From an uncultured Spirochaetota bacterium (lineage in GTDB: Bacteria > Spirochaetota > Spirochaetia > SZUA-6 > Fen-1364): a stretch of 64,000 nucleotides of DNA. The notes under the pieces were generated by a model. The model saw only the letters and a list, made by a program, of their open reading frames with translations. It did no database searches and had not been told where the DNA came from. The stretch covers positions 32,001 to 96,000 of the forward strand of contig CAVTHO010000010.1 of NCBI GenBank assembly GCA_963734545.1, written 5' to 3'. The position numbers and the translations under genes are program-made. How positions within the stretch are numbered: the first letter of the stretch is position 1; the number at the start of each line of letters is the position of its first letter. This document shows positions 1-61,500 of this stretch, one piece after another.

Positions 1-590
1 CGACGCGTGCCCAGCCGCTCAAGCCTGGCCTTCACGAGGAACGAACGCAGGTACGCCTCACGCGGCTGGCCTTCGATTCGGATCTCCAGCCGGCACGACA
101 CACGCGGAGCAGCGTGCTGCGGTACCCCGCGGATTTCGCGCGCAGACGCAGGACGGCCGGCGAGACCGCTGGCAGGACCGCGCTCGGTCCGCGCACCGGC
201 GCTTCCCGCTCCGTGCGCGCGCTCAACCGGCTCATGAGGCGCCTCCGTCTCACTGTTGAAACCGGCGCCTCCGTCAGGTGAGCCGACCATCGACTTGCAG
301 GAGGTCCAGTCCTTCGAAGAGGACTTCACCCAGCCGCGATGTCATAGGCCCGCGTGCCGTCCCGCACATCGGCCAGCGACGACTCCAGGCAATGCGCAAG
401 CTTCTGCAGCATGTCAAAGCCGATGAACCCGGCTGAGCCCTTCAGCGTATGGATTGCCCGGAACATACCGTTCAACCGCTCCGGCTGCCCGGGATTCCCA
501 TCGAGGGCCAGGAGGCATTCCTCCCATTCCCTGAGCGAGATCGCTCGCCTCTTCGCTGAAGATCGCCAGGTATTCCGATTTCTTTTCCAT
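1..590 (-). CDS. cheA: Chemotaxis histidine kinase CheA, N-terminal Hpt (P1) part; frameshifted, runs off the window
   Basis: ATG at 590 reads MEKKSEYLAIFSEEASD, then after a frame change LREWEECLLAL...MFRAIHTLKGSAGFIG, the Hpt phospho-His motif. Lies downstream of cheY-cheX. Confidence 0.85.
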
Positions 591-629
591 TTCAGGTTTC
601 TCCCTGTTTCCCTGGTCCCTGTCCGCCGC

Positions 630-1154
630 CTAAGCTTCGGACAGGGCTCCCACGAATGATTCCGTTTCCTGCAGTGTCTCCTGCTCCTCCACCGCAATGC
701 TGATCTCGATGGGGCCATACTGGGTAATCAGTCCCAGTACCAGCGCGGGCTTGGGCACAAGGTGCACGCTCAGGTTGGTGCCCGTGGCAATCGCCGGGGT
801 GGTGATGTTCAGTATCTGGTCGCGCCTCTGGTTCAGCAGCGCGGTGGCATTACCGGTGATCATGTTCGCCACCTCGCCCAGGCAGTCCAGGAACATGATC
901 TTCTTTTCCTGCGGGGACTTGCCTTCCAGCATCTTGTCCACCAGCCGCGCGGCGAGGGCGCCGTCCAGGCTGTAGACGATCTGGCCGGTCAGAAAGCCGT
1001 AGATGCCGATTATGATGGACACCCCGAAGGAGGGCTCCACCTTGGCCTTGTACGACAGGTGCCCCCGGCGGACTTCGATGCCAGTGATCTGGTTGACCAC
1101 CCGCATGGCGGCCTCGACAAACGGATTGACGTGCTTGGCGTTGATCTTTGTCAT
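630..1154 (-). CDS. cheX: CheY-P phosphatase CheX
   Basis: HVNPFVEAA N-terminus, GEVANMITGNA (E-x2-N phosphatase motif), ITTPAIATG; sits between cheY and cheA. Confidence 0.9.
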   Translation of the reverse strand: MTKINAKHVNPFVEAAMRVVNQITGIEVRRGHLSYKAKVEPSFGVSIIIGIYGFLTGQIVYSLDGALAARLVDKMLEGKSPQEKKIMFLDCLGEVANMITGNATALLNQRRDQILNITTPAIATGTNLSVHLVPKPALVLGLITQYGPIEISIAVEEQETLQETESFVGALSEA

Positions 1155-36725: not shown

Positions 36726-37149
36726 ACGACGAGATCGCGAGGATACCGTTACCGCTTCCATGGGCAGCGCGGGCTGCGTCCCGGCCAAGGGCTTCCTCCT
36801 GGAGCGGACCAGCACCGCGAGCGCGACGCAGTTGACGAGGGAAGCAGCCGCTGCCAGCGCCGACTGCTTCGGTCCCGTCCGCCCGTAGAGCTCGACGAGT
36901 CGCTACTTGCCCCTGTCGTTCGGCTGCAGGTTGGCAATGGTAAAGCTGCGCCCGCCCTGAGTGTTTCGCCTGTTCCGTGACGAAAAAACGCATGGCCGAG
37001 TGGACCGTCCGGTGCGGGTCGTGCCAATCGCGGCGCCCTCCGGGCGATACCTTCGCATCCGCAGATAGTCCTTCCGCAAATAGGTGTTTTCCCCGATACT
37101 CCGCGCTCCCCCGGCCGTATATCCTGTCCGGGAAAAAGGAGAGACAGTC

Positions 37150-41091: not shown

Positions 41092-42496
41092 TTATTCGCG
41101 TGTCCGTTGCCGCAGCCTTTTGTTGAACGCCTGGTGCGAGATGCCCAGCATCCTTGCTGCGATGCTCTGGTTGCCGTCCGCGCGTTTCAGCGCCTCGTCG
41201 ATCAGCAGCTCTGCCGCCTCGTCAAGGGTGGGCAGCCTTTCCGAGAAGCCAAGGAGGGCCGGGGCCGATTCGCCCGGCTCCCGGGGGGTCTCCCGCGGGA
41301 TGCCCGCCTTGCCATCCATGAGGACAAGGTTGGGAGAGGATTGCCGTGACACGGCATCGTAGCACCATCGAGCGGAGCTCGCGGACGTTGCCGGGAAAAT
41401 CGTAGGCCTCGAGACGCTTCATCTCCTGCGGCGTCACGGATGGCTTCTTCTTTTCGAGCTTCGCGCACGCCTCATCGAGAAAATGGTCCAGCAGAAGCGG
41501 CAGGTCGTCCTTCCTGTCCCGCAGCGGGGGCACCCGAAGCTCGTGCGTGGAAAGACGATAGTACAGGTCCTTTCGAAACTTCCCTTCCGAGATGAGGGCG
41601 GCGAGGTCGTGGTTGGTGGCGACAAGGATCCGGGCCGCGGAGCGTCTCGGGAGATCCGAGCCAAGGGGATAGTATTCGCCGGTATCCAGCAGGCGCAGGA
41701 GCTTCACCTGCGACTGGATGGACAGGTCCCCGATCTCGTCGAGAAAAAGCGTTCCGCCTCCGGCCTGCTGCACGTGCCCGGCCCGGTCTTCCTTGGCGTC
41801 GGTGAACGCGCCCTTGCGGTGCCCGAACAGCGTGTCCGAGAACATGTCATCATTCACACCCGCAACATTTTCCTCGAGGAGGGTTCCCTCCCGGCCGCTC
41901 GCCGCATGAACTGCAGCGGCGAGCAGGCCTTTGCCGGTGCCCGTCTCGCCCGTGATCAGTATCGGCTCGGCGGTTTTCGCAACGGATTCGACGATCCGGA
42001 AAAGCGACATCATCACGCTGTTCCGCGTGACCAGGCCAGAGAAGATCTCCGGATGGGCCAGGTGCGGGGAAAGCATTCCCTCCTTCAGGCGCCGGTAGTC
42101 ACGAGAGAGCTTCCTGATCTCGATGGCCCTGCGGACCCCGCTCACCAGGCGGCTTTCCTCCACCGCTTTCACCATGTAGTCGACCGCGCCGGCTTTCATG
42201 CACTCCACGGCAGCGCTCACGTCGTTCGAGCCCGTGACCACGATGACCGGGACCTGCGGCATCTCCTCGTGGATCGCCGCCAGGAGCTTTTCCCCGGGCA
42301 GGTGGGGCATGGTGAGGTCCAGGAGAACGAGCTCGATCTCCCTGCCGCGAAGGATGCTCATGGCCTCACGGCTGTCGGTGCACGCGACGAGGTTGTCGAT
42401 CCCGTTGGACCTGAGCCCGAGGCTCAGGCTGTCGATGACCGGCTGCTCGTCGTCGATGAGCAGGATCGGGTTCTCAGGGTTTCCACGTGCGCTCAT
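41092..42496 (-). CDS. NtrC-family sigma54-dependent response regulator; frameshift near 41350
   Basis: [51 protein letters not shown]; [16 protein letters not shown] in ORF 41092-41352. Confidence 0.9.
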
Positions 42497-45426
42497 TGTT
42501 CCGCCTCCGCGGGAAGGATCACCGTCGCCTCGGTGCCGACCCCCACTTTCGATTTCAGCTCCAGCGTCCCGTTGTGAGCGGTGACGATGGCCTTGGACAC
42601 GTGCAACCCGAGGCCGGTGCCTCCGCTCGCCTCGCGGGTGGTGACGAACGCTTCCCCCATACGGGGCAGGATCTCCGCCGGGATGCCGACGCCCTCGTCG
42701 CAGACGATGACCCGCAGCGTGGCGGCCGTCTCGCCGGGGCAGCTGCGGACCGTGATCGCCTTGTCCCTGCCGCCAAGAGACTGGCAGGCGTTCAGGATGA
42801 GATTGATGAACACCTGCTCGAGTCTCTGCGCGCTGCCGCGCGTCCGGGGCAGGCCGGGGCGCAGCTCCAGCGCGAAGCGGTCCGTGGACCTCTTGATGTG
42901 GCCGCCCAGGAGGTCGACCGCATTGCGGATTGCGGTGTTGACGTCGAACAACGCCGCGCCCCGGCCCGGTGCGTCCGCGCTGAAATCCCGCAGATTCTTG
43001 ATGATCCCGTCGATGAGGGCAGAGCTGTTCACGATCCCGGCGAGGATCCCGGGCAAACTGGCGCGGAACTCCACGGCGTCCAGTCCCCCGATCAGAAGCC
43101 CCTCGGTCCCGGCCGTTGCTGCTTCGAGCAGGGCGGCAAGCTGGGGCGACGCGTTCGCGAGCAGCGTCGCGTTGAGAAGAATCACCTGGTTGGGCACGTT
43201 GATCTCGTGCGCCAGGCCCGCGGCGAGCACACCGAGGGAGGTGAGCTTGTCCATGCGCATGAAGTTCTGCTGCTGCAGCCGGGCCATTTCCTCTTCGCGT
43301 TTCCTGCGTGTGATGTCACGGATGAGAACAGCGACTGCCGGTCTGCCGCGCCAGAGGGTGGGCCAATACACCAGCTCCACGGGCAGCTCGGCACCCGCCG
43401 CTGTGGCAGCGAGCGCTTCGGCGGGCGCGTCGGGCTGTACGCCGTAGGGGGGGAGCACGGCGGATCGGAAGAGCGCATCGAACCGAACCCGTGTCAGCCC
43501 GGGGGCCGCATAGCCCGTCATCTCGACGGCCCGCCGGTTCGCATAGACGGCGAAGTCATCGCTGAACACGATGATCCCGTCCTGGGCGTCCTCTGCCAGG
43601 GTGCGGAAGCTCGATTCAGCGCGCCCGATCGACTCTACCATCCGGTTGAACGAGCTCGCCAGGATGCCGATCTCGTCGTGGAAGTACACCCTGACCGCCG
43701 CGTCAAGGTCTCCGCTTTCCACCTGCCGCATTCCTCGGGACAGGGCTCGCAGGGGTATGAAGAGACTCGCCCGAAGAAGGAGTGGGATGAAGAAGAGCAC
43801 GAGGAGGCTCGCCCCGACTGTGAGCGCGGCGAGCACAGCGATCCTTTGGTTCAGGTAGCGCACAAAGCCTGCCTCATGCGACTCGAAAATCACGGCCGGG
43901 CGGGTGCCGAACCACGGGAGGCCGCGCGTGAAGCTGATCGGTTCCAGTGGCGCGGTGGAGCCCCCGGGATGAATGCCCGTCAGCCGGGGCGGAAACAGCG
44001 CCGGCCTGTCGCTCGAGGCAGGGTCTGCCCCGGTCGTGCTCGCGGCCGCGTAGTTGCGCAGCTGCTCGACTGAGGGGCCATGAGCGGGGGAAAGCGCCTC
44101 GAAGGACATCTCGATGGTGCCGTCCGCGCGAAGGACGAGCTGGATCGTGTTCTCGTTCTCGGCTCCCAGTTCAGGGAGGCGGAACCAGGTGATTGTCATC
44201 GAGTCCGGACGGGACTTGATATGCACCCCTCCGCTCCTCGAAGGGTCCAGGTTCATGATGAGCGGCGCGATGGCCGGTTGCGGGTTGTACCCTCCCCACC
44301 CGTTCTCCGGCGCGCTCTCCCCGAGATAGATCATCGGGCCGTTGAGGATGCGGACCAGGCGGTAGCGGGAAGAGAAAAAGGGAAAATCGAAGTCGAGCAC
44401 TGCAAAACGGGGGCGTCCGTAGACAATGTCCACCTTCGGCCCCAGGTCCGGATCGAAGGCGTCCGGCGCGCCCCTGATGTCGTAGCTTCCGAAGTCGTTC
44501 CGAGTGAAACGGATCGTCGAATGCTCCGGCGGCAGCGAGACAAGCGGATAGTCGCTCGCCGCAGTCTCTCCCACGAAAAGGGAGACGAGCCCCATGGTGC
44601 TCAGAATCAGGACAAGGGTGACCCCGATCAGCTTCACCTGCAGGGTCATGGGATCGGCGCTGTGGTTCAGATATGTGACGACGAATCCGAGATAGAACAG
44701 GAGAAGACCGAGCCAGGTGAGATAGTTCGCCAGGGAGAAGGGAAGGACGCCGTAGGTCACGGCGAACGCCGCGCCGATGGCCAGCACGGGAAGAAGGAGA
44801 ATCTCGGCGAGGGCCCGCGCCGACTCGGCATCGCGGCCGTGCGGCCGGACGATCCTGTCCAGAAAGGAGCGGGACGCACGGCCGGCGAGGTTCGCCGCCT
44901 TTCGGAACAGCAGGACGATCGCCCCGAGGAACTGTATCCCGAGGCTGACGTAGAACGTGTACCAATAGATGTTCCAGAGCCGCATGTCGCTGAAGTGCCA
45001 CTGCAGCAGGAAATGGTTGTACACATTGAGACCGAGGACGCCCGCGTTGAGGATGATCGAAAGAGTGAGGACGATCCTGAACTCTTTCCTCTCCACCCGC
45101 CTGAAACGCGGGAAATAGTAGGCAAAGAACAGAAGAAACACCATGGCGAGCGACAGGCCGATGTCACTCGCAAGGAGCACGAGCACTGTTTTGAGTGTGC
45201 GGGGCTGCCAGTAATATGGCCCGGCGAGCTCGAGGAACAAGGCGATGTTGAACAGGAACGCCCCGGAGAAAGCCCCTGCGAGGAACAGCGTGGCGAGTGT
45301 CTTCTTTGGCACCAGGAAGAGGTAGACGGCGATGACAAGGGAGAGCAGAAGGGCGGCCAGCCGTATGATTGAGAGTGAATCGAGATTCAACCAACCCGGC
45401 AGGAGTGTGATCGCAGCCTCCTCCAA
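42493..45426 (-). CDS. Multi-TM sensor kinase with extracytoplasmic NIDO-like domain, HAMP, PAS, HisKA and HATPase
   Basis: About 8 TMs; FDFPFFSSRY...IAPLIMNLDP...GGV...ITW...TIQLVLRADGTIEMSF; HAMP (DEIGILASSFNRM); AHEINVPN; GGTGLGL. Confidence 0.88.
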   Translation of the reverse strand: MEEAAITLLPGWLNLDSLSIIRLAALLLSLVIAVYLFLVPKKTLATLFLAGAFSGAFLFNIALFLELAGPYYWQPRTLKTVLVLLASDIGLSLAMVFLLFFAYYFPRFRRVERKEFRIVLTLSIILNAGVLGLNVYNHFLLQWHFSDMRLWNIYWYTFYVSLGIQFLGAIVLLFRKAANLAGRASRSFLDRIVRPHGRDAESARALAEILLLPVLAIGAAFAVTYGVLPFSLANYLTWLGLLLFYLGFVVTYLNHSADPMTLQVKLIGVTLVLILSTMGLVSLFVGETAASDYPLVSLPPEHSTIRFTRNDFGSYDIRGAPDAFDPDLGPKVDIVYGRPRFAVLDFDFPFFSSRYRLVRILNGPMIYLGESAPENGWGGYNPQPAIAPLIMNLDPSRSGGVHIKSRPDSMTITWFRLPELGAENENTIQLVLRADGTIEMSFEALSPAHGPSVEQLRNYAAASTTGADPASSDRPALFPPRLTGIHPGGSTAPLEPISFTRGLPWFGTRPAVIFESHEAGFVRYLNQRIAVLAALTVGASLLVLFFIPLLLRASLFIPLRALSRGMRQVESGDLDAAVRVYFHDEIGILASSFNRMVESIGRAESSFRTLAEDAQDGIIVFSDDFAVYANRRAVEMTGYAAPGLTRVRFDALFRSAVLPPYGVQPDAPAEALAATAAGAELPVELVYWPTLWRGRPAVAVLIRDITRRKREEEMARLQQQNFMRMDKLTSLGVLAAGLAHEINVPNQVILLNATLLANASPQLAALLEAATAGTEGLLIGGLDAVEFRASLPGILAGIVNSSALIDGIIKNLRDFSADAPGRGAALFDVNTAIRNAVDLLGGHIKRSTDRFALELRPGLPRTRGSAQRLEQVFINLILNACQSLGGRDKAITVRSCPGETAATLRVIVCDEGVGIPAEILPRMGEAFVTTREASGGTGLGLHVSKAIVTAHNGTLELKSKVGVGTEATVILPAEAEQ

Positions 45427-46228: not shown

Positions 46229-48010
46229 TTATGATTGCTCTCTCGCTGTGTCTCCGGTCGACAAAGCCGTGCTGCTGTTCTCAATCTTGAACTGGGCCAC
46301 CTGGCGCTGGAGCCCCTGCGCCATGCTGGACAGCTCCTCGGTTGCCGCCGACATCTGCTCCGCGGAAGAGGCGGCCGCCTGCGTGAGCTCGTTGACATTT
46401 TCCACCGCCCGCGAGACCTGCCGGGCGTTGGCGTTCTGCTCCTCTGTGGCCGTCGAGATGTTCTGACTCATCTGGTTGATGTTGACCAGCGCCTTTGCCA
46501 GGTCCCTGCTGGCCACCGTCTGCCGCGACATCGATCCGGACAGCTCCCCGATCATCTGCTGCACCTTCTGCGAGAAGACTCGAATCTGCTCCATTGCATC
46601 CTGGGAGCCGTGGGCGATCTCCACCTCCTGGGCCACGCTCTTCACGCTTTCCCTGATCAGCCCCGTGATTTCCTTGGTCGAGGCGGAGGAGCGGTCGGCC
46701 AGCTTGCTGACCTCGTCCGCCACCACCGCGAAGCCCCGCCCGTGCTCCCCGGCGCGCGCCGCCTCGATGGCGGCGTTCAGCGCCAGCAGGTTCGTCTGGT
46801 CGGCGATATCGGAGATCACGTCGATGATCCCCCCGATCTTCTCCGAGCTGCCGGCAATTCGGGTAATACCGGCGACCACCTCGCTGACCGCCTGGGCCCC
46901 TTCCTTCGACTTCTCCACCGACTGGTTGGCCAGCGTCGAAATCTCCCCAAGGCTTCGCGCAACCTCCTCTATTGATTTCTGCACCAGCTCCATCGAGCCG
47001 GTGCCCAGCTTGACCGCGGAAACCTGCGTCTGGGCGTGCTCGCTGACCTGGTCTACGCTGGAGGACAACTGCTCCACCGAGGCGGAGGTCTCTTCCAGGG
47101 TGGATGCCTGGCTCTGAGCCCCGTCTGCCAGGTTCTTCGCGCTCTCTGATATCTGCTCGCTGGAGGCCGCCAGATGCCGGGCGCTTTGTTGAACGGCGGC
47201 CACCATCTCCCTCAGCCGCACCGACATGTCGTTGAGCGCCTGCGCAAGCTTCCCGATCTCGTCTTTTTGGCTGATGGCAAGCTGATGCGTGAGATCGCCT
47301 TCAGCAATCCGGAGCGCAAGCGCGACGCTCTTGCTCAGGGGCCGGGTGATCGCCGCGGAAATGATGAAGCACAGGAGAAGCGCACACACGAGGATGGCTC
47401 CCGCAACGGCGAAAAGAAGGATCATGGACCTCGATTCTATGACGGCAACCATGCTTTCGATCCTCTGCGACTCCTCGTTCGCCATCTGCGCGACCTTCTC
47501 GGTGCTCGTGCGGTGGCTTTCGTAAAGGGGCGTCAGCTTTTCGTCGAAGAGCGTCGAGGCAAGCTCCTTGTTGCCCGCCTTGACCGCAGGAACGAATTCC
47601 GACTCGAGGATGGTGAAGTACTGGCTCGCGGTATCATAGGCTTCCTGGGTCATGGTGGCCTTGATGGGGCCCTCGGGAAGGTGTGTCGACCAGTACGTGT
47701 GCCTTGCTTCGAAGTCGATTCGCAGAGCCTGTACCTTCAGGCCGAGGCCCTCGATCTCCGCATCGCTCTTCGCGTCCCGCAGCTTGATCGTTGACAGATA
47801 GGTTTCAATGATGAATTCCATCGGCGGCAGGAGATCCGCGGCAAGATCCTTCTGCGTGATGATCTGGCGATAGAGGGGGCCCTTCACCTTGATCGTGGAG
47901 ATCATGAAGAGCGAGTACCCGCCGAGACCAAGGAAACCGAGTATGAAAACGACGCTGAGCATGATGAGTTTTCCGCGCATGCGGAGGTTCGCAATGAACC
48001 CTGCTTTCAT
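46229..48010 (-). CDS. Methyl-accepting chemotaxis protein (4-helix-bundle-sized sensor)
   Basis: TM, sensor, TM, HAMP; [33 protein letters not shown]; probable start MKAGF at 48010. Confidence 0.93.
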
Positions 48011-48159
48011 TGGCCCGTCTCCTTCCCCCCCGCCGCCTTCTCGCCATATAAAGGAATGATAAATTATAGTATAGCGTTTCGGCTGGATTCTTCCAGCGAA
48101 AGAATCAGGGCGGGAGATTCGTTTGACATGCGCGGCCGCACGGAGTCGAGGAGAAGACA

Positions 48160-49290
48160 ATGAAGACCAGAACTCTCGGGAGAACAGATCTTGAAGTCAG
48201 CGTCATCAGCCTGGGCACGGAGTATCTCATCAACCTTCCCCGGCACCATGTCGTGGAGGTGATTCACAGGGCCATTGAGCGTGGAATCAACTATTTCGAT
48301 CTCTTTTGGGCTCAGGCGGCGTTCCGCGATACCATGGGAGCGGCTTTCAAGGGCTGCCGGGAGAAAGTTCTTCTCGCCGCCCACCTGGGATCCGCCGATA
48401 TCAACGGGCAATATGAACGAACCCGGGATCCTGCGCTCTGCGAACGTTTCTTCCTGGACTTCCTGGCGAGGTATCAGATCGACTGCGTGGACATTCTCTT
48501 CCTCCATAACAGTGAATCTCAGGAAGACTATGATGGTCTGATGAGGCCCGGCGGCCTGCTGGAAATGGCAACCCGCTATCAACGGGAAGGAAAAACCCGA
48601 TACATCGGGTTCAGCGGCCACAATGCTTCGACCTCCCGGCAAGCGGCTGAGTGCGGCGCCATTGACGTGCTCATGTTTCCCCTGAGTTTCACGAACCATG
48701 CCATGCCCGGCAGGCCGGAGTTGCTCGAGGCCTGTCTCACGCACAACGTGGGGCTGGTCGCAATGAAACCGTTTGCCGGAGGAAATCTGCTCAGAAAAGA
48801 ACCCACAATTGAGGTCACCGACTATCAGATGGGAAGAGCAGAGGCAGCCGGGTCACCGACGCAATTCACGAAATCCAGGGAGATAACCCCGGTGCAGTGT
48901 CTTTCATACGTCCTGGACCTGCAGGGCGTTTCAACTGTCGTGCCGGGCTGTGCCAATATCGAGCAGTTGGAGGCGGCATTGGCCTGCTGTGATGCGAGTA
49001 CCGAGGATCAAAAGTATGCCGCGCTCCTGCCGGATTTTGACCGCTACAGAACCGGGGTCTGCATCCACTGCAATCACTGTCTGCCTTGTCCGGCACACAT
49101 CGATATTGGCCATGTCCTGCGACTGCTCCAAATGGCGCACAATAACCGGAGATCGGAGGCTCGGACCGCTTACCACACCCTTTCCGCCGATGCCTCGGAC
49201 TGCATCCGGTGCGGTGACTGCGCGGGACGCTGCCCCTTTGGCGTTGAGGTCATCGCCCGGATGGAAGAGGCGGTCGCGATTCTTGGATGA
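48160..49290 (+). CDS. Aldo/keto reductase with C-terminal 4Fe-4S dicluster
   Basis: [38 protein letters not shown]; [11 protein letters not shown] and [12 protein letters not shown]. Confidence 0.92.
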
Positions 49291-49587: not shown

Positions 49588-52500
49588 CTAGCGGGCAATT
49601 TCGTCAAGCCACCAGGTCAGGCGCGCAAGGACCTTCTTCCGCAGGTCGCTCGGGCAATTCTGTCCCTGGTCAGCCTGGTCCCTCCCGGGTCCGCCGTCCA
49701 GCGTGTCGTGCCCGTCCCCGCCCACCAGCCAGTCATCGCCCGCGCCGCCTCGCAGGATGTCGCTCCCGTCCTGCCCGAACAGGATGTCATCCCCATCCCC
49801 ACCCTGCATGGTGTCCTGGTCGAAGGGGCCACCCGGGCAGCCCTCGTGCCTGCTCAGGTACAGCCCGCTGCCTCGTTCGCCCGTGGAGGCCCAGAGCCAG
49901 AAGCTCTCCTGGGCCAGGCCCATGTCCAGAAGGTCTTCGGCCAGCTCCTCCGCGTCGTATCGCACCCGGCAATAGCTCTTCTGGCTCAGTCCCTCGCCGG
50001 CAACCACCAGCGGCGCAGCGAATGCGGCGCTGTCCCCGAAAGCCAGGTCATTTCCCGCACCCGCGTCAAATAAATCGTTTCCAGCGGACCTGGCATCCGC
50101 CAGACCGTCCCCGCCATGCTCGTCACTGCAGCAGCTCCTGCCACCGTCGTGATCGCCGCGGGAATCATGACCCGAGTCGTAGTGGTTGCCCCAGAAATCA
50201 TGGCCCCAGTTGTCGTGGCTGCCCCAGGAATCATGGCCCCAGTTGTCGTGGCCGCCCCAGAAATCATGGCCGCAGTTGTCGTGCCCGCCCCAGCCGCAGC
50301 CGTTGTGCCGCGGAGCAGGTGACTCGTCAGGCACCAGGGTGATCACCGGGACGAGAGAGCTCCACCGGTCGCCCACCAGGACGTCGTCACCCTCCCCGCC
50401 GGCCAGGGAATCGTTGCCCGAGACAATGAGGTCGATATGATACACGAGATTGATCCGCGGCTTCCTGCCGGCTGTCACGGTCACGAACGTCTTTCTGAGG
50501 TCGTGGGAAACATCGTCGATCTCCCGCAGCACCCCGCCTGCCATGCACGCGATGTCCTCCGCCTCCTCCACGAAGTCATCCAGGGAGAGCACCAGGCCCA
50601 CGGGGACCGTCAAGGATGGCGCCGCTATCGTCATGTCGTCGCCCACCAGGAAGTCCCTGCCCGTGCCGCCGTCGAGCTGGTCACAGCCGATCCTGAAGGT
50701 ATGGTCCACGACGGTGTCGCGGGAAGCGAAGCAGCCGCCATCAACCCACTTGCCGATCGCCTTATCTATCCGATCCAGGAAATGTGACAGCTCATCGATC
50801 GCCGCGGAGAGATCCTGCCCCATTCCCGTCGCAGTTCCCAGAATCCCCGCGGTAACCTTGAGCGTGGGGGCGAAAACGACCCGGTTGTCGCCCACCAGGA
50901 CATCGTCTCCGGCTCCGCCGCGGAGCGTGTCATTGCCGGCAACGAGGCCGAGGTGGTGCGCCACGTCCGTGACGAACGAGGCCAGCGGCGCCAGGCGGAC
51001 GCCGTCGAGACGATCGAGAGTGTTCGTGCTCGGGAGAATCGAAAGGTCGCAGCCGGCATGGGTAAGGACGGCCGCGAAGGGATCCACGGCCTGGCCGGGA
51101 ACAACCGAGAGCACCGGCACGATCGTGGTGCCGGCGGCGGCCACCCTGATATCTCCCGCCGGCCCGTTCCCCGCGTCGCCCGGGATCAGCAGCAGCCCGC
51201 GGAGAACGTTCGGCAGCGGGGAAGCGGAAGCGACCTGCACCGCGTCATCGCCGACCAGGACGTCGGCGTCGTCACCGCCGTCCAGCAAGTCGTCCCCCGC
51301 GCCTCCGACCAGGAAATCAATGCCCAGCCCGCCGGTGAGCCAGTCGTCCCCACGGCCGCCGAACAGGGCATCGTCCCCGGCGCCTCCGTCCAGGACGTCA
51401 TTGCCGTCCGCACGCAGCGATACGAGGATGAGCTCCGTCTCCCACTTCTGGCATCCCCACGCGTTACGGACGAGGTGTCGGCTCCCGTCGGCGTTGTAGG
51501 CGCCGACCACGAGCACGAGGTCAGCGTTCAGAAGATCGGAAATCACGTCCGGGTCCAGGTCACCCCACCAGAGGCTGCTCGGGTGATACACGCCTGTGAT
51601 GACGCCCACGTCCGTCAGCAGGACATCCGAGTGCCAGGAGCCGTTCGGATCGAGCCGTGGCGTCCCATCCGGGTTGTATGCGGGCGTGATGATCCCCACG
51701 TCGCCCAGCAGGACATCGTTGCCCTCGCCGCCGCTCACCTCATCGCTTCCCAGCCCCGCGACGATCAGGTCATCACCCGCGTTCCCGCTGATCAGGTCAT
51801 TCCCTGACCCGCCCGCGATCCTGTCGTTGCCATTGTCACCCGTAATGACCAGGTCTGTCGTCACAACGGCCGCGTCGATAACGTCGCACCCTCCCTCACC
51901 GTGGATGATCAGGGCGATGGGGTCCGTCTCGGTGACGGTGACCAGGTCATCTCCCTCTCCCGACCACAGCGTCGTTGTCGTGCCGATGCTCTCGTGGGTG
52001 GAGCGTACCTCGATCGTGTTTCCGCCCGAGCCGCATTCTATGTTGATCCCGCCGCCGAACGTGCCATCCGTGGCCGCGTAGTATATATTCGCGGGCGAGA
52101 GTCCCGTGAGGGAGCTGCTGGTGATGACGACGTTCGAATCCGGCGTCCCGTCAGCCTCGTCACTCACGTTCAGCGAGTTGACTCCTCCCCCTGCTTCGAT
52201 TTCGAGCACCCCGAGGATGCCGTCCAGCGTCCCTCCGTTGGCAGGAGCATCGGAGGAGACATTGACTGTGTCGTTTCCAGTGCCCGTGACCATGCGCGTG
52301 TGGGCCGACGTGGATTGGACATTGACCGTATTCCCGCCCGAGCCCAGGGCGATGTTCAGGCTCTCCACGCCGCTGTAGCCGATCCCGTCGCTCATCCCCA
52401 GGCCCGTGATGCTGTCCGCGGTGAGGGTGAGGCTGTTTGGCTCGCTGTCTCCGCTGTCGTCCACGTTCAGGGTGTCCTCGCCCTCCCCGCCGATGAGGGT

Positions 52501-55500
52501 CAGGGGGGCCAGGATGAGGTTCACCGTGCCGCCTGCATCAGGCGCCATGGAACCGACGTTGATCGTGTCGGCCCCCGGCCCCGCGTTCACCGTAGTTGCT
52601 GAGCCGATGGACTGGATGTTCAGTATGTCACCGCCCGAGCCCAGGGCGATGTTCAAGCTCTCCACGCTGCTGTAGCCGATCCCGCCGCTCATCCCCAGGC
52701 CCGTGATGCTGTCCGCGGTGAGGGTGAGGCTGTTTGGCCTCGCCGTCTCCGCTGTCGTCCACGTTCAGGGTGTCCTCGCCCTCCCCGCCGATGAGGGTCA
52801 GGGGGGCCAGGATGAGGTTCACCGTGCCGCCTGCATCAGGCGCCATGGAACCGACGTTGATCGTGTCGGCCCCCGGCCCCGCGTTCACCGTAGTTGCTGA
52901 GCCGATGGACTGGATGTTCAGTATGTCACCGCCCGAGCCCAGGGCGATGTTCAGGCTCTCCACGCCGCTGTAGCCGATCCCGTCGCTCATCCCCAGGCCC
53001 GTGATGCTGTCCGCGGTGAGGGTGAGGCTGTTGGGCTCGCTGTCTCCGCTGTCGTCCACGTTCAGGGTGTCCTCGCCCTCCCCGCCGATGAGGGTCAGGG
53101 GGGCCAGGATGAGGTTCACCGTGCCGCCTGCATCAGGCGCCATGGAACCGACGTTGATCGTGTCGGCCCCCGGCCCCGCGTTCACCGTAGTTGCTGAGCC
53201 GATGGACTGGATGTTCAGTATGTCACCGCCCGAGCCCAGGGCGATGTTCAAGCTCTCCACGCTGCTGTAGCCGATCCCGCCGCTCATCCCCAGGCCCGTG
53301 ATGCTGTCCGCGGTGAGGGTGAGGCTGTTTGGCCTCGCCGTCTCCGCTGTCGTCCACGTTCAGGGTGTCCTCGCCCTCCCCGCCGATGAGGGTCAGGGGG
53401 GCCAGGATGAGGTTCACCGTGCCGCCTGCATCAGGCGCCATGGAACCGACGTTGATCGTGTCGGCCCCCGGCCCCGCGTTCACTGTGGTTGCTGAGCCGA
53501 TGGACTGGATGTTGACCGTATTCCCGCCCGAGCCCAGGGCGATGTTCAGGCTCTCCACGCCGCTGTAGCCGATCCCGTCGCTCATCCCCAGGCCCGTGAT
53601 GCTGTCCGCGGTAAGGACGAGGCTGTTTGGCTCGCCGTCTCCGCTGTCGTCCACGTTCAGGGTGTCCTCGCCCTCCCCGCCGTTGAACACAACCCCACCG
53701 ATGGGAACGGGGATCCCTCCGACAAAGTCGACAGTCAAAGTGTCCCCGTCGTCGGACCCGTTGAACGTGAGGAAAGGCGCCTCAGCGGCCGTGATGATAT
53801 AGACGACCGTTCCGTTCAGAGACACCTGGATATTCCCTCCGTCGCGGAACAGCCGGAAGGTGTCCTGCTCGCCATCATTCATTCTCGGGCCGGCGTCGAT
53901 GACGGAATCTTCCCACACCGTGACAGCGAAGGACTGTTCGTCACTGGCAGCGGGGTCGGCGTTGTCCGTGACCCGCACGGTGAAGGTGTACACGAAGGGC
54001 CCCTGTGCCTCCGTGGGAATCCAGGTCAGCTCACCGGTGGAGGCGTCGAGGAAAACGAATGCCGGCGCCTGGTCCAGGTGGAAGGTCAGGACGTCCGTCC
54101 CGTCCGGGTCGGTCGCGACGATTGTCAACCGCAGCTCGACGCCTTCCGTGGCAGACTGATCACCGATGAAACCCAGGACCGGGGCATCGTTGACGCCCTG
54201 CACGATCACCACGACCCGGGCTGTCGCCGTCCCGGCCTTGCCGTCGGAAACGGTATAGGTGAAGGCGTCTGAGGCGGATTCGTCGAAAGCCAGATAGTCG
54301 AACACGCCGCGGGGGTCATAGGTATAGGTGCCATCACCGTTATCCGTCACGGTCCCCAGGGTCCCGGTGGTGTCAATGGAAACGATGGAGAGGATGTCGC
54401 CCGGGTCGGGATCGTGGTCGTTGGAAAGGAGGAAAGACGCCTGGATGATCAGCGCCGTGTCCTCGTCCGTCAACAGTTCGTCGTCCACCGCCATCGGCAA
54501 TGACTCCACCAGGACGCTGAGGGTGCCCTCGAACACCGCATCGTCCGCCCCGGACATCGTCACGGTCACGACATAGGTACCGCCCAGCTCCCACGTGTGG
54601 GAGATATCGGCCGTGACCGGGGTGTCCGCGCCCTCAGTGAAGGGCACGGTCCGGGTTTCGGTGGGCGAGCCATCGCCGAAGTCGAAGACCAGCCGGGCGT
54701 CCGCCCCGTTCATGGAATAGGACCCCAGGGGATCGCGGATGTCCACGTGGATGAGCGCGGGCCTTCCCTCGTACGCGCCGCCGGTGAGGGTCGGCTCCAC
54801 CACGAGATAGTGCTCGATGCCGGAGACGACCCCGCCGCTCAAGGCGGTCTCGACCCGCTGACCGATGATGACGCGATCCACGAACAGGTCCCCGCCGGCC
54901 TCGAGCTGAAGCATATTGGAGTACCGGTCGGCGGCCAGGAGGACGCGCGTGCTGACGATGTTCCCCGGGGAATGCACAATGAGCGATCCGTCGCTCACCG
55001 TCGCATTCCTGAGCTCGATGGACCCTGCGGCATTGATCTCGAGATCGCCCGCACCGCGCACGAAGGCCTCGATCCGGCGGACGTTCACGTCCGCGCGGAA
55101 CCCGTTCTGGGCCGTCATCTTGAGCGTATCCGCGCTGATGAGGGCGCCGACAGCCTGTGAAATGGTCCCGGCATCCAGATCGATGCGGCTCCCCTGAAGC
55201 GCCGTTCCGCCGAGGGTATTCAGCCGCAGCTCGTTTGTCGCCGTCAGCGCGATCCCCGCGCCCGAAGACTCGGCCAGGGAGCCCCGGTTCGTGAAAATGA
55301 TGTTTTCAGCACGCAGATCCACCGCGCCGCGGGCAACGAGGGCGGCGTCAACGATGATGTCCCGCTCTGCAACGATGTTCCACGGTCCCTGGTAATCGGC
55401 GCCGAGAAGGACGCTGAGGTTATCCCGGGAGACAAGGGTCCCCACCGGCCAGGCGCCCGTGTCGACCTGGATCGCGAGCCCCGCCGTAAGCTCGGCCTGA

Positions 55501-58500
55501 CCGCCGGTGAGAAGAGCCCCCGCTGCCTCCCGGATGCTCCGCGCCGAATCGAGGCGGATGGCCCCGTCGTTGTTTCCGGTCGAGCCCCGGGCCGTCAGGG
55601 CCCCGAGGACCAGGCCCCCGTCTCCACGGGAGACGATGTCAATGGCGTCGGCCTCGACCAGGGAGGCGACGATGCCGGCATCGGAGACGATGGACAGGGC
55701 CCCGGTGTGCGTTCGGACGTTCTCCAGCACCAGCGTCTTGCCGCTCCCGGCGAGATCCTTGTCCGACACGAAGAGGCTCTTCCCCGCCTCCACGACCAGC
55801 TCTTCCACGTCCGTGTAAAGGACCGCCTTGCCGGAGGAAGACGTGGCGACCGTCAGCCGCTTGCCCTGGACCAGGCTGCCCGGGTCTCCCATGACCGAAC
55901 CCAGCCCGGAGGCGAGACGGACATCGGCGCTGCCGACCACGGCTCCCGACAGGAGCATGACACCGTCCGGAGAGATGATCCGCACGAAGTCTGTCCCCGA
56001 CAGGCTCGCGCCCAGGATCAGGTCCGTGCCGGTTTGAATCAGGATGTCCCTGGCCGTGAAGGCGCTTCCGGCCTTCAGGCCTTCGATCGAGCCCGCCGCC
56101 AGGAAGGAGATCGAGCCCTGCGCATCGAAGGAAACATCCTTCATCGCGATGTCGCCGCCCGTGACGATGGAAACGGGCAGGAGGCGCAGGCCGTTGTGCG
56201 TCACCTCGACGAACAGGTCGGGAACGGTCTCCACCTCCGCGTTCGAATAGGTGGCGGGATCCGCAATGAGGATCTCTGCCCTCGGCACCTCGGTGTAGAC
56301 GGGGGTGAGCTCCGCGAAGCTGACCAGGATATCCTCGGGTTCCAGCTTCGCGACGCCATGGTCAGCGAGGGTCTCGCCCGGGTAGAGGACGATCAACCGT
56401 CCGTTCGGCAGCAGCTGGGTCTCGAGCGTGGAGAGCACGGTATCGAAGTTGACGATCCTTCCCGTGGTCTCATCCAGGAAATAGAGGCTTTCCTCCCCGG
56501 CGCCGGCTTCTGCCGACGTCGTCAGGAAGCGGTAGCGGTAGCTGTCCACGGCAAAGAGAGGGCTCTGGATGGTGACATCACGATCATTTCCAGTGTCCAG
56601 CCAGGTTTCCTTGTGAGTCTCGGTAGTCCACTGCAGGAACCGCCGCACGGTGAAAGCGCCGTCAAAGAGGAAGAGGTCCGCGGGCCGTTCGCCGGATTCA
56701 TTCCAGGCGTAGAGGCGGCTCCCCAGGGACCCGTCCCGATTCTGCCGATAGTCAACGAACACCCACGCGCTGCCGCTGTTCTCCAGTCCCCTGGTCCACG
56801 TGTAGAACACATCGTCGCTCGGGTCGTCCGGCGTGCCCTTCGTGTCACGGTAGAACGTGCGGCCGGTCCCGTCCTCCTGGTAGATGAAGAGCCCGGAGAA
56901 CTCGTCCTGGGCAACGAGAACGGCCTCGTCCTTGGTGGGGGCATCGAGCGTCACCCCGTCCAGCAGCTCGTCCACGGGGAGCTTCCGCAGCCTGTCCTCG
57001 ATGGAAAGACGGCCCGACTTCAGGCTCTCGATGCTGTCCTTGAGCGACTGGATCCGCACATCGCCCAGGCGCAGCTGGTCCCTGAACCCTTCCAAGGCGA
57101 CGGTAAGGGCGAGCCGGTTCTGGGAGAAGGCCAGGTCGTGCGTGAAGACCAGGCGTTCGGCCTCGATCGCCTGCGCGTTGATCTGGGCTGCCCCGAGATC
57201 GGACCGCTCGGTCTGCTTCGTCTGGAGGATCGCGGCCAGGCCCTCTTTCAGCCCCGTCTCCCGCAGGTCCAGCTCACCCAGGCGGCTGTCCAGTCCCGCT
57301 TTGTTCGCCGTCAACGTGATACGTGCGGTGTTCAGATCCCCCAGCTCCTTGGTCAGAACGCTCAGCGCCCCGTTGAGGTTGGAGCGCTCAGCAAGGTCGG
57401 CCTGATAGACCAGGTTAAGATCGGCGCGCTGGTTCTGCAGAGTGGAGATCTCCCCCGTGACCCGGGTTGCCTCGGACGGAAGCGAGGCCACGGCCTGGTT
57501 CAGCAATTCCTCGAGGCTGAGCTGCTGGCTCAGAAGAGCGGTCTGGGAGGACTGAAGCTCGGCGAGCGAAGCCTCCTGCAGGCCCAGGGCGGCGAGGGAG
57601 GCCGAAAGCGAATTCTTCTGTGTCGTGAGAGTCGTCTCCTGCGACTGAAGGGCTGCGATGTCCGTTTCCAGGGACTGCTTCTGCGCCTGCAGCCCGAGGA
57701 TCGTCGCCTTTTCCGTCTCGAGAGCCGTCTCCTGGCTCCGGTAGCCGGAGAGAGCCGAGGAATAGTCGGAGCGAAGGGCGGCCAGGGCCGAGTGGGTACC
57801 GGGCAAGGTCGCGTCCAGCGGCTGGTTGGCGCCCTTCTGCGCGAGAGCGGTCCCCACCTGGGTCAGGTCCGTGCGCATGCCGGAGACGGACGCAAGGATG
57901 TCGCGGAGGTCCTCGAGGTCGGCCCGGGTGAGGCCGTCCAGCATGGCCGGGGTGATATCGGTCAGGGACTTCGTCTGTCCCTTGTACTGGATCTGGCCCA
58001 GGTTGAAGGTGCTGAGAGACAGCTTTCTTCCGTCTGAAAGGGTGAACTGGAGGGTCTCGAGGTCGAAATCGTTGTTGAAGAGGGTCGCTGCGGCGGGCTC
58101 ACCCGGCAGGATCGACCGCGGAATTGCTCCGATCCTCTCGTTCACCTGCCCGAGCAGGGCGTCCACCTGGTTCAGGTTGCCGATCCCGGTCACCAGGGTC
58201 TGGTAGGCGACCTTTTGAAGCTGCGTGTTCACCGCGCCGATCTGACTGGAGGTGGAGCTGATGGCGGACCCGACTGAGCTCAAATCGCCTTCCACCAGGC
58301 TCAGGCTCCGCTGTCCAGACAGGCTGGTCGAAACGGTGCCCAGGGTCTGCTGATCCGAGAGGATGGACGACTGCACCGACGTCAACTGGGACTGCGTGAA
58401 ATCGAGGTCCTGCCGCAGCCCGATGCCGGCCTGGATCGTGCCCAGCTGGGTTTGAAGCGCGGTCAGTCCCGTCCGGGTGATCAGGTCCCCGACATATCCC

Positions 58501-61500
58501 CGAAGGGTTTCGCCCAGCACATTCGAATAGCCCGAGAGGTCGCGGAGAGACTGCTCGATCACGGCGAGGTCGGTCACGCCGTTCAGGGACGAGATGATGG
58601 CCAGGGCCGATTGCCGCGCGGTCACCTGGGAGTCGATGGCGCCCATCTGGCCGACAGTGGCATCGATCCGGCCTGTCACGGCCTGGATGCCGTCCTGGGT
58701 CTGGGCCAGGGAACCCTTGTTGGCGTCGATCTGAACGAGGAGGGCAGACTCCTGCCCGGCCAGCCCTGACAACCGCGTGGTCGTGGAGGCGGTCTCGTTC
58801 TGGAGGCCGTTGAAGAGCTGGCTCAGCTCAGCGTCGCTCATCGTGCTCACGTCGAGCGCCGTCACCCAGCCCGCGTCCAGCGTCGCCGGGAACTCGGTCG
58901 CTCCGCCGGACAGCTTGAAGCCCTGCCGCGCGCTCATTTCCGCCGTCACGTCTGCGAGGACCCCGCTCAAGGCGGCCTTGTAGCCGGTCGTGGCGTCCAT
59001 CGTGTCCCGCACACCCTGGAGCACGGTCGTGAGGTCTGAAACGTTGCCGGAAATGGCCAGGATGCCGGCTTCGTTGGCTCCCAGGAGCGATTGCACCTGA
59101 TCGCGATCCTGAAGCACGCCCGTCCTCTCCGTCACGAGGTCGTCATAGCCCGCCATGTCTTCGAGCACGTCGGGGAGAAGCGCCTGCGCCTGGACGAGGT
59201 CCCTGAACGCCCCGGTCTGGACCTGCACCTGCAGATCCCGAACGAGTGAGGGAGTCTGTATGAGGTTCTGCAGGCGATCCTGCTCCATCAGCCTCAGCAG
59301 GGCGTCCTGTCCGAGGCGTCGGTCCGCCTGCAGCCGCAGGGATTCCTGAAGCTCGAGATCCAGCGCTGCCTGGAGCCGGAGGTTCTCCTCCAGCTCCATG
59401 GTCAGCTGCTCCCGTTCGGTCAAGGGTACAACGACGGTCAGCCCCTCCCAATCGCTGACGTCGGAAATAAGGTTCACATTTCCGCCGGAGACCACGCCGA
59501 ACTCGGTGAGACCGCTCAGGCGACCGCCGAGGGTCACGCTGCTTGCGGCCTCCACTGTCAGCCCTCGAACGGATATGTCCACGGCGCGGCCCAGCGCGCT
59601 GAGGCTCCCGCCGGCTTCGAGCTCGAGCGTCCTTGCAGCCTCCAGGCGCCCCGTGAGGACGAGGTCGTTGTTCGCCTTGAGGACGATGTCTCCTCCCGAC
59701 AGGACCGACGAGCCGGAGACCGCCTCGCGGACGAAGAGGCTGCCGCCCGTTGACTGGAGGGTCAGGGCCGCGCCGCTCAGCAATCCCTCGACCTTGCCGA
59801 CCACCAGCCCGCCGTCAGCGGTGACCGTGAGGGCGCCCCCCCGTGCCGCCGCGAGCTCCAGCCCCGTGCTGGCCTCGCCGATTCCGTCTCGATCAGTGAG
59901 GTTCACGAGAGCCGAGGCTCCGGCGCGGAGATCCTCCACCGTCCTGACCGCGGTGTGCACCCCGTTGATTGAGCCCTTGGCGGCGAGGCGAACAGCGTCC
60001 GCCACGATGTGGACGCCGCCCAGGCTGCCGACCGGAACGATTGCGCCGTCACTGGATATTTCCACCCGGCCCTGGGAGGAGTACCCCTGGGTGAGGGTGA
60101 GGAGGGAGTTGGTCTCCCCCAGCGCCGCCGCGGCCGCCGCACCCTCGTCGCCGGGGAACACGGACGAGTAGGCAACCCCGAGGACATCAAGAACCCTGCC
60201 GTAGATGAGCGCGGCCACCTGCCTCGTCATGATCGTGCCGTCGTCGGCAAACGCGTGCGCGACGACCCACGCCAGGTCCTCGGCCTGGGTCAAAGTCAGC
60301 TCCACGAATGCGTCGGACACCACGATCACCGGCAGCCCGCCTGAAAGCGTTCCCCTGACGAGCCGGTTCGTCCGGGTCAGGAAATCCTCAGGGATACCTT
60401 CCGTGGAAATCTGCCGAAGCACGCCGTTCAGCGCATCGAGCCGGACCTGGGCTGCTTCCGCCTCGCTCGACGCATAGGTTCCGCCGCTCACCCAGCCCAC
60501 CATGACGCTCCCGCCGCTCCCCGGGGTCGTCTCCAGGACGATCATGTTCGGTCCGGGGACGCCGGGGTTCCAGTCGTTTCTCAGGACCACCCAGGTGGCG
60601 GTCAGGTTTCCGTTCTCGGTCACGCGGATGTCGCCGTTGGTGATCTCGATTTTCTCGAGCACCAGGTCGGGGCCCGCATCATGCACGGTCAGGTTGCCGT
60701 CTCCGCTGACGTCCACCGTCACGACGTTGGCGTTCGTCTGCAGGCTCGTGGCGCCGAAGGCGACCACGTCCAGGCGGTCCGCCGTGATCAGGCTTTCCGC
60801 GTCAAGGGGCGACATCGTTCCTTCCACCCGCACCTCGACATCCGCGGCGCCGGCCGCGTCGATCACGTCATAGACCAGGGATGCTCCGTCTGCCGTCAGC
60901 GCCCGCACCGCGATGGAGATATCGTTGTCATCGGAGCCTCCCGGGGACCGGACGCTGGTTGCCGTCACTCCGCTGCCCAGGGCACGGATCGTGATGGTGC
61001 CGGCGGCCGTTTCCACTTCCGTCAGGAGGAGTCCCGCCGTCTCCGTATCGCCCTCGGCGTCGACGTCGCGCAGGAGGATGTCGCCTGCGACGGTCACCCG
61101 CGCCCGAACCTCTGCCACGGCCAGATTGTCGAGGAGGACACCGGTCCCTGATGTGGCCTCGAGGTATGCCGCCGTGATGGTTCCGCCAAGGGCGGGAGGC
61201 GTGTCGCCCTCCTCGACGGCGTCCACCCATTCGCCGGTGAACTGGAAGACTGATCCCAGGGGCGCGTCCACCCTCACGCGGTCAGCCGTGAGAACGGCGT
61301 CGATGAGGGAAACGTCTCCGCCCTCGGTCCCGGCCTGCAGGTGGATCTCGGCATTCGCCCCCGTGGCAGCCAGGAAAGCGCCGATCGAGGTCCGGTCCGC
61401 CGTGCCGTCCAGCTCGACGTCGGAATCCGCGTGGGCGAACACGCTGCCGACCCCGGTCTCATCGGTTCCTGCAAGGACTTCGATACCAGTGACGGCGTTG

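Follow-up and report, generated by a model that had tools for sequence, protein, structure and literature searches.

A conserved coiled-coil module, projecting or in-line, in a giant surface-type protein of an uncultured Spirochaetota bacterium

A giant open reading frame (ORF) on the minus strand of an uncultured Spirochaetota genome carries a long alpha-helical coiled coil between two beta-rich regions. It lies in a 64,000-nucleotide stretch of assembly GCA_963734545.1 (contig CAVTHO010000010.1, positions 32,001 to 96,000; the window, to which all coordinates refer unless stated otherwise). This alpha-helical coiled coil is genuine and recurs in a few distantly related metagenomic proteins, and it probably forms a long helical arm. 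It is a projecting or spacer module of a giant surface protein, with a base domain that lacks a recognised fold. From the sequence, coil and base domain together would make up an insert of approximately 1,100 residues between two beta-rich shaft regions. A first-pass annotation of the same letters had described a coiled coil with a central globular tip inside a beta-helical RTX giant, and had offered either an out-and-back stalk or a membrane-active or oligomerisation arm as its role. The part of the ORF that falls in the window, 53223-63998, is translated as P0001 (3591 aa). An AlphaFold2 model was made of P0001 1500-2620 from a 24-row alignment, such that the P0001 number is the model number plus 1499. 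The genome itself is a metagenome-type assembly of 10 contigs with a completeness of 89%. In the order in which the chain runs, the module and its flanks are:

59469..62081, minus strand: N-side beta-rich region, rich in Gly, Val, Thr and Ala (P0001 ~640-1510), recognised from sequence; presumed beta-solenoid shaft
58128..59423, minus strand: helical arm 1 (P0001 1526-1957, model 27-458), from AlphaFold2 helices, periodicity (z 8.8) and heptad windows
58584..59147, minus strand: antiparallel hairpin in arm 1 (model 119-191 and 223-306), from predicted local distance difference test scores (pLDDT) and VIA-align
57927..58127, minus strand: non-helical middle piece, or tip (P0001 1958-2024), with five short strands predicted by AlphaFold2
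56985..57926, minus strand: helical arm 2 (P0001 2025-2338, model 526-839), from AlphaFold2, periodicity (z 9.4) and heptad windows
56166..56924, minus strand: beta-rich globular domain of ~250 residues (P0001 2359-2611), from two AlphaFold2 models and conservation
54759..56165, minus strand: C-side beta-rich region (P0001 2612-3080), recognised from sequence and collinear with homologues; presumably the shaft resuming

The helical segment comprises 819 residues (P0001 1526-2344, 59423..56967 on the minus strand), in line with the 56980-59430 first proposed, and the interruption noticed there (PRSILPGEP ... QIQYKGQTK) maps to P0001 1960-2010, or 58121..57969. Relative to the rest of P0001, the segment is raised in Leu (16.7% versus 9.4%), Gln (9.2% versus 2.5%) and Ser (9.2% versus 7.0%). 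Glu, the remaining heptad residue named in the annotation, shows no enrichment (5.6% versus 5.4%). Heptads were scored by their a/d positions on 28-residue windows against the 95th percentile of composition-matched shuffles; 39% of windows in arm 1 and 43% in arm 2 exceed this threshold, compared with 0-2% of those in the tip, in the globular domain and in either flank. Similarly, local hydrophobic periodicity peaks at exactly 3.5 residues in arm 1 (z 8.8) and arm 2 (z 9.4), with z from -1.6 to 0.0 at that period in the two beta regions and the globular domain. Arm 2 also features the 7/3 harmonic (z 4.4 at 2.3 residues), and 298 of its 334 residues lie in heptad-scoring windows. Its a/d positions are canonical and dominated by Leu, which occupies 47% of core positions, a tally that is partly circular because the windows were picked by Leu, Ile, Val or Met at a/d. 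The surface of arm 1 is composed of Gly, Ser, Gln, Ala and Thr. A heptad-periodic helical region with a non-helical middle piece is thus borne out by heptad score, periodicity and AlphaFold2 alike. Its far boundary had been set too late: the coil does not run to IVTGGDIAM (P0001 2611) and ends at about P0001 2338-2344, leaving 266 non-helical residues (P0001 2345-2610) that comprise a linker and the beta-rich domain.

In the AlphaFold2 model, helix spans residues 27-458 and 526-839, strands occupy 472-511, and the beta-rich domain extends over 860-1112. Arm 1 is divided into ten helices by nine breaks. Arm 2 is nearly continuous, and its stretch 643-839 is interrupted by single residues only, at 674 and 770. 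Mean pLDDT over ten-residue blocks is 70-91 across model 121-310 and approximately 55-78 in arm 2. The sole confident antiparallel pairing is the arm-1 hairpin, in which model 119-191 packs with 223-306 across a 31-residue loop (192-222). All top rows of the VIA-align structural comparison map to model 91-314, and the matched proteins are antiparallel two-helix structures: the Smc coil fragment 5xg2 (Z 13.4, root-mean-square deviation (rmsd) 3.9 over 171 residues), the dynein stalks 3wuq (Z 12.0, rmsd 1.8 over 143) and 8i3j (Z 12.1, rmsd 2.2 over 142), and further Smc5/6 arms, chemoreceptor hairpins, EmrA and RipA. These rows establish an antiparallel hairpin in the model, without implying kinship. 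With the full model, the best Foldseek matches (best E 0.013) were likewise dynein stalks, Smc5/6 and Rad50, and a PDB sequence search with the module returned no match.

The middle piece is the least conserved part of the module, with 10-20% identity to the homologues P0002-P0005, relative to 23-38% for the arms and 33-47% for the globular domain. Its strands (model 472-511) are predicted with pLDDT below 50. All four homologues nevertheless have a piece at the equivalent place, with a length of 37-49 residues overall and 45-49 in three of them. A Pfam scan of the middle piece found no family, and with a 19-residue Kyte-Doolittle maximum of 0.84 the tip is not hydrophobic.

The globular domain that follows the coil is the best-conserved part of the module (33-47% identity to homologues). 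Folded alone, it reached a mean pLDDT of 67.5 and a predicted template modelling score (pTM) of 0.60, with a core at 75-94, and it features two strands of 22-24 residues. In both models most ten-residue blocks average above 80, with dips to 50-75. Foldseek retrieved no solved relative (best E 0.021, template modelling score about 0.1); its best hits were the pore forms of alpha-haemolysin, and the likeness there is confined to one long hairpin. A wide VIA-align search placed none of 48,161 chains at Z >=5 (best Z 3.9), Pfam contained no family for the domain, and the ESM Atlas gave no usable match. A new fold is not proven by these results, because the model is only partly confident.

Relatives of the module were sought in several ways. 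An exhaustive HMMER search of 1.84 billion representatives recovered 24 proteins at E <=0.001, of which five reach E <=1e-30 and some are generic coiled-coil matches; by this sequence search the module is rare. A word-based search with P0001 1500-2620 found none at E <=0.001 among 2,111 candidates. The alignments of P0002, P0003 and P0004 begin at the end of the N-side beta region, cross both arms, the tip and the globular domain, and reach into the C-side beta region; P0005 starts inside arm 1 and aligns from there on. The collinear match to P0002 covers P0001 119-1839 at 41% and 2173-3140 at 36% identity, and P0013 matches P0001 37-1764 at 40%. In all, at least four further giant proteins, themselves partial, carry coil and domain collinearly, and the named ones among them bear a Planctomycetota label. 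A homologue profile (A2) matched only integrin FG-GAP propellers, and these matches were set aside because they trace to sequence that follows further downstream in the homologues.

Four other metagenome runs supplied contigs, 90-99% alike, that span four junctions of the module: beta region to coil (59154-59522), the middle piece (57486-58313), coil to domain (56767-57011) and domain to beta region (55522-56225). The likeness of these contigs indicates that close relatives of the gene occur in other samples. The four runs are labelled as wetland metagenome, and their contigs cover 23-27 of 30 bins of 52300-59600. The tetranucleotide profile of the contig correlates at 0.97-0.99 with those of the nine other contigs of the genome. 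Collinear homologues and contigs across all four junctions together argue that no mis-join occurred. A mis-join had been named beforehand as one of two findings that would refute the coil; by homologues and other-run contigs, the segment is an integral and conserved part of the gene.

Eight homologues were looked up. Three are labelled as Planctomycetota or Thermoguttaceae metagenome-assembled genomes (MAGs) and one as an archaeal MAG, a label that may be a binning error; of the other four, two carry a protein name only and two are nameless. Each of the eight forms a singleton cluster, their contigs measure 4-24 kb, and seven are visibly partial (no start Met, or named 'partial'). Their names, 'hypothetical protein' or 'VCBS repeat-containing protein', give no function. 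After the C-side beta region the homologues continue with FG-GAP propellers, cadherin-like/Big, dockerin, cohesin or RTX domains, which fits an extracellular role. Within this genome the module occurs once. It was found in none of 40 relatives, 20 of them of the same genus; the globular domain was found in none of the 400 genomes searched as a sample of the phylum; and a related-locus search with a single protein gave one spurious coiled-coil match. Such a patchy distribution would fit the spread of a ~3,000-residue cassette by horizontal transfer.

We propose, at a little under an even chance, that the helices of the module fold back into a side-arm, which carries a variable tip and is clamped by a conserved domain. 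The chain would leave the N-side shaft and run outward as arm 1, turn at the variable, beta-rich middle piece, and come back as arm 2. The two arms would be antiparallel and packed together, as a rod that exits the shaft and rejoins it, and an elbow is probable around the loop of arm 1 (model 192-222) and the kink of arm 2 (model 770). The conserved beta-rich domain would sit at the base, where the chain re-enters the shaft, and the middle piece would be displayed at the far end of the rod. At 0.15 nm per helical residue, the 314 residues of arm 2 would give a reach of at most about 45 nm, or roughly half of that if the rod is folded at its elbow. In this role the module would carry a variable contact surface on a helical stalk, at a distance from the fibre axis.

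Pairing of the arms and projection from the shaft are suggested by several features. Arm 2 is long and unbroken and so needs a partner of about 200 residues, which within the chain only arm 1 can supply. Row 15 of the VIA-align results, the EnvC hairpin 8tzl_E, spans model 94..812 and links an arm-1 helix to an arm-2 helix. Counted manually from the tip on the AlphaFold2 secondary structure, helix breaks fall at residues 116, 148-152 and 237-267 in arm 1 and at 114-117, 149 and 245 in arm 2. Finally, four helices have lengths that would fit a folded four-helix base (73, 84, 95 and 69 residues; model 119-191, 223-306, 675-769 and 771-839).

Other observations weigh against the folded-back arm, and several of them favour its main rival, an in-line helical spacer or hinge, which we regard as possible though on the unlikely side. 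As a spacer, the module would consist of up-and-down bundles along the fibre axis, similar to spectrin or the Ebh rod; the chain would enter at one end and exit at the other, and the middle piece would be a mere linker between bundles. The confident pairing sits within arm 1, as a short hairpin, and does not join arm 1 to arm 2. The arms are unequal in all four sequences in which both are complete (432/333, 561/373, 438/285 and 505/335 residues for arm 1/arm 2 in ours, P0002, P0003 and P0004), with arm 1 in excess by 99, 188, 153 and 170 residues. The nine helix breaks of arm 1 and a tip that is poorly conserved and poorly modelled would also suit a spacer. By a rough estimate the coincidence of breaks would arise by chance about 1 time in 10, and it derives from the same low-pTM model, whose global pTM is 0.31 and mean pLDDT 64, with distal arm 1 (model 343-458) and the tip mostly below 50. 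For helical models, a VIA-align Z below approximately 13 may mean just a common arrangement, and Foldseek gave nothing for the full model at E <=0.001. A model-free mirror correlation of helix propensity exceeds 95% of the null near zero offset in only two of five sequences (P0002 and P0005), and in P0001 its maximum lies at offset 30, level with the null's 95%. The continuity of both flanks as one beta-helix is likewise a presumption from sequence. Against the spacer stand the nearly unbroken arm 2 (model 643-839) with its demand for a ~200-residue partner, the one structural alignment (8tzl_E) that joins arm-1 and arm-2 helices, and the retention of the middle piece at the equivalent place in four homologues. 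Of the stalk first suggested for this segment, the helical region with a non-helical middle piece stands, and a single out-and-back stalk is not established.

The remaining alternatives are less probable still. The heptads, chiefly those of the Leu-rich arm 2, might pair between molecules and bundle fibres on the cell surface; the canonical a/d positions of arm 2, with Leu at 47% of the core, and its 7/3 harmonic (z 4.4) are what such an oligomerisation arm would show, but the core tally is partly circular, and we consider this reading improbable. A membrane-active or pore-forming arm similar to ClyA, the tripartite alpha-toxins or a Tc-toxin channel, with the middle piece inserting into the membrane, is very improbable. 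Among its matches to model 73-331, VIA-align does list the pores of AhlB and SmhB (Z 10.3-11.7) and the channel helices of TcA (Z 10.0-10.6). These Z lie below those of unrelated antiparallel coils and in the noise band for helical models, and the toxin matches cover the arm-1 hairpin and not the tip, with the likeness to AhlB and SmhB limited to model 90-331. Relative to ClyA and the tripartite alpha-pore-forming toxins, the module has no hydrophobic beta-tongue or head at the end of the bundle. Neither Pfam nor NCBIfam assigned it a toxin family, and no 19-residue window exceeds a Kyte-Doolittle value of 1.6 (maximum 1.30 in the module and 0.84 in the tip), such that the earlier membrane-active idea finds no support. 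Finally, a separate coiled-coil gene mis-joined into a beta-rich gene might be suspected from the metagenome-type assembly and from frame breaks in a tandem repeat further downstream in the gene. At least four independent homologues with an equal order of parts, contigs across four junctions and a frame open over 12,474 codons rule it out on these data, and we leave this artefact a vanishingly small probability.

The ORF extends well beyond the module on both sides, and further features of it and of the region downstream are:

53223..64000, minus strand: C-terminal 3591 codons of the giant ORF, which runs on past the window end
62223..62495, minus strand: C-type lectin domain (P0001 ~502-592), from Pfam Lectin_C
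53916..54722, minus strand: PKD, cadherin-like/Big_9 and He_PIG Ig-type domains (P0001 3093-3361), from Pfam
52334..53686, minus strand: tandem repeat of ~99 codons in 4.5 copies, units 2 and 4 being one base longer
49588..52692, minus strand: downstream ORF of 1034 aa with RTX nonapeptide repeats (PF00353, E 8.5e-38, 7 stretches)

The frame is open for 12,474 codons from stop to stop (85223..122650 in the coordinates of the contig, C10). The window cuts this frame, so only its last 29% is visible there; whole-frame numbers are P0001 numbers plus 8883. The Lectin_C domain, approximately 930 residues upstream of the coil and also present in the collinear homologue P0013, scores E 4.8e-5 and 24.5 bits against a cut-off of 22.6 when the fragment 62139-62621 is scanned alone. 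It contains EPN and WND tripeptides, known as Ca2+/sugar-site motifs of mannose-type C-type lectins. A Pfam scan of full-length P0001 placed PKD, cadherin-like/Big_9 and He_PIG at 3093-3361 only. In the other 8,900 residues upstream of P0001, Pfam found no Ig families; it did find a single RTX stretch and, at the N-terminus (giant residues 40-85), a PG_binding_1 match below threshold (22 bits, cut-off 23). Given the Lectin_C, PKD, cadherin-like and RTX domains, this protein of more than 12,000 residues looks extracellular or surface-bound. A variable tip on a conserved stalk, together with lectin and Ig-type domains, suggests that the tip may serve in contact or adhesion. For its size the giant protein is largely non-repetitive and nearly without Pfam families; a chunked self-BLAST gave only 26 weak internal repeat pairs, and these formed no array.

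Both flanks are presumed to be beta-helices or solenoids by their appearance and, on the N-side, by weak autocorrelation at lags of 20 and 42 residues. The N-side flank had no Pfam match, and a PDB sequence search gave only a weak match to FtsY that appears compositional; the same search with the C-side flank gave none. A hydrophobic periodicity of 7.0 residues was also observed in 54759-56165 (z 6.9) and 59469-62081 (z 3.6).

Directly upstream of the giant frame is a 986-codon ORF on the minus strand (contig C10 ~122592-125552) that begins with a LEPR-XLL N-terminal motif (NF012209, 18 bits against a cut-off of 17). By arithmetic its end lies about 13 nt before the first ATG of the giant frame; this ORF could be a partner gene in its own right or one more part of the giant gene.

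At the other end, the giant ORF terminates within the tandem repeat, whose units start at 53672, 53375, 53077, 52780 and 52482. Units 2 and 4 measure 298 nt rather than 297 nt, so the frame shifts twice (+1 each) and the RTX-bearing last 1034 codons are out of frame. The extra base stands at the equivalent position in both units, such that a two-unit block including the frame change was seemingly duplicated. Contigs of the other runs have gaps across the repeat at 52544-53275, and the frame breaks are either real or an assembly error; one joint in contig X3 skips 1,170 bases (52476 to 53647), and its shorter side of only 20 letters makes it unreliable. The giant protein probably once ended in what is now the downstream ORF 49588-52692, which stands in a different frame. 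RTX repeats had been described as part of the same protein as the coil; PF00353 instead lies in the other-frame ORF (49591-52692) and nowhere in P0001. It recurs elsewhere at one site approximately 4,000 residues upstream of the window part of the giant protein, and RTX-type NCBIfam matches to the downstream ORF are partial and all far under cut-off.

A scan of ORFs up to ~12 kb to either side showed no genes for a type I secretion system (T1SS; ABC transporter, membrane fusion protein and outer membrane protein), and the T1SS families TIGR01842 and TIGR01843 gave nothing above cut-off anywhere in the genome. An ABC exporter and HlyD-family pair on contig C5 is not diagnostic. The label 'RTX adhesin' holds only in part: the RTX ORF downstream stands in another frame, an extender array is missing, and no T1SS genes are adjacent. 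Directly downstream of the giant gene follow a methyl-accepting chemotaxis protein (46229-48160, minus), a HAMP/PAS histidine kinase (42493-45426, minus) and a sigma-54-dependent response regulator (41222-42496, minus). Further downstream are a GH26 enzyme (39180-41075) and a GH10 enzyme with CBM_4_9 (37084-38775).

Among known systems, the Lap-type RTX adhesins invite the first comparison. In these proteins, ligand-binding domains project from 'split' Ig-like domains, as described for AhLap, FrhA and MpIBP (PMC12077191). Lap-type adhesins resemble the proposed layout of the giant protein: they are very long and secreted or surface-bound, with an inserted element that leaves and rejoins the fibre axis, lectin-type and Ig-type domains nearby, and RTX repeats toward the C-terminus, which here stand in the downstream ORF. 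However, the carrier here is presumed to be a beta-solenoid and not an Ig domain, and the projecting element would be an 820-residue helical coil rather than a compact domain. The giant protein also lacks a tandem Ig extender array, having one PKD/cadherin-like/He_PIG cluster; its RTX part is out of frame in the assembly; and no T1SS genes occur within ~12 kb. Overall, three of the four listed defining features of a Lap-type RTX adhesin are either absent from the giant protein or uncertain in it. The four are an RTX beta-roll at the C-terminus of the same polypeptide, an array of Ig-like extenders, neighbouring T1SS genes and an N-terminal retention module with a LapG cleavage site; for the last, the giant protein offers only its sub-threshold PG_binding_1 match. 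The first-pass annotation had held that such an architecture would be novel, and a full-text literature search, subscription papers and supplements excluded, found no such arrangement. The word 'coiled' occurs 0 times in three RTX-adhesin papers that use 'split domain', and passages of 10.1101/2023.11.21.568195, PMC12077191 and PMC8286594 describe no giant protein of beta-solenoid or RTX type that carries a long insert of coiled coil.

Several other families share single traits with the module. Trimeric autotransporter adhesins resemble the giant protein in that their surface fibre is built of beta-rich parts and coiled-coil stalks in turn. They are obligate parallel trimers and end in a YadA-type membrane anchor at the C-terminus; Pfam found no YadA-type anchor, head or neck family in P0001, in the pieces upstream of it or in the downstream ORF. 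Relative to TpsA/FHA/CdiA proteins, five pieces scanned with Pfam matched neither the two-partner secretion (TPS) domain nor FHA-type repeats, and the upstream ORF has the LEPR-XLL N-terminal motif instead. The signalling domain of methyl-accepting chemotaxis proteins is a long antiparallel hairpin with much Ala, Ser, Thr, Gln and Gly, to which arm 1 is similar in composition, and chemoreceptor hairpins appear in VIA-align at Z 11.6-12.5. However, MCPsignal had no match in P0001 at E <=0.1, and the context of the module is extracellular.

The closest likeness in design, a generic one, is to the dynein stalk with its microtubule-binding domain and to the arms of SMC, Rad50 and Smc5/6 with their hinge and elbow. 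They consist of long fold-back helices with a small non-helical piece at the turn, as proposed for the module, whose helix breaks may likewise form an elbow. Among solved structures they match the confident hairpin best, at 5-13% identity and noise-level Z. They belong to cytoplasmic ATPase machines, whereas the giant protein has no ATPase heads: Pfam found no ATPase family in P0001, and NCBIfam SMC_prok_B reached 19.1 bits against a cut-off of 567, over the coil only (P0001 2071-2322). As a more speculative view, which we regard as rather unlikely, the module could be an extracellular counterpart of the SMC/dynein-stalk design, with an elbowed, intramolecular antiparallel arm, tens of nanometres in length, on a beta-solenoid fibre, an anchor of new fold and a fast-evolving contact tip, all within a cassette of ~3,000 residues shared, perhaps horizontally, between Planctomycetota and the unrelated host of this window. 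Giant bacterial surface proteins are usually described as strings of beta-sandwiches or beta-solenoids whose ligand-binding parts bud from split domains. If the proposed layout is true, a conserved helical arm of ~800 residues with a variable tip, clamped by a domain that has no recognised fold, would represent another way to present a binding surface far from the fibre axis, and it would help to locate the functional end in giant proteins of uncultured bacteria that are otherwise featureless.

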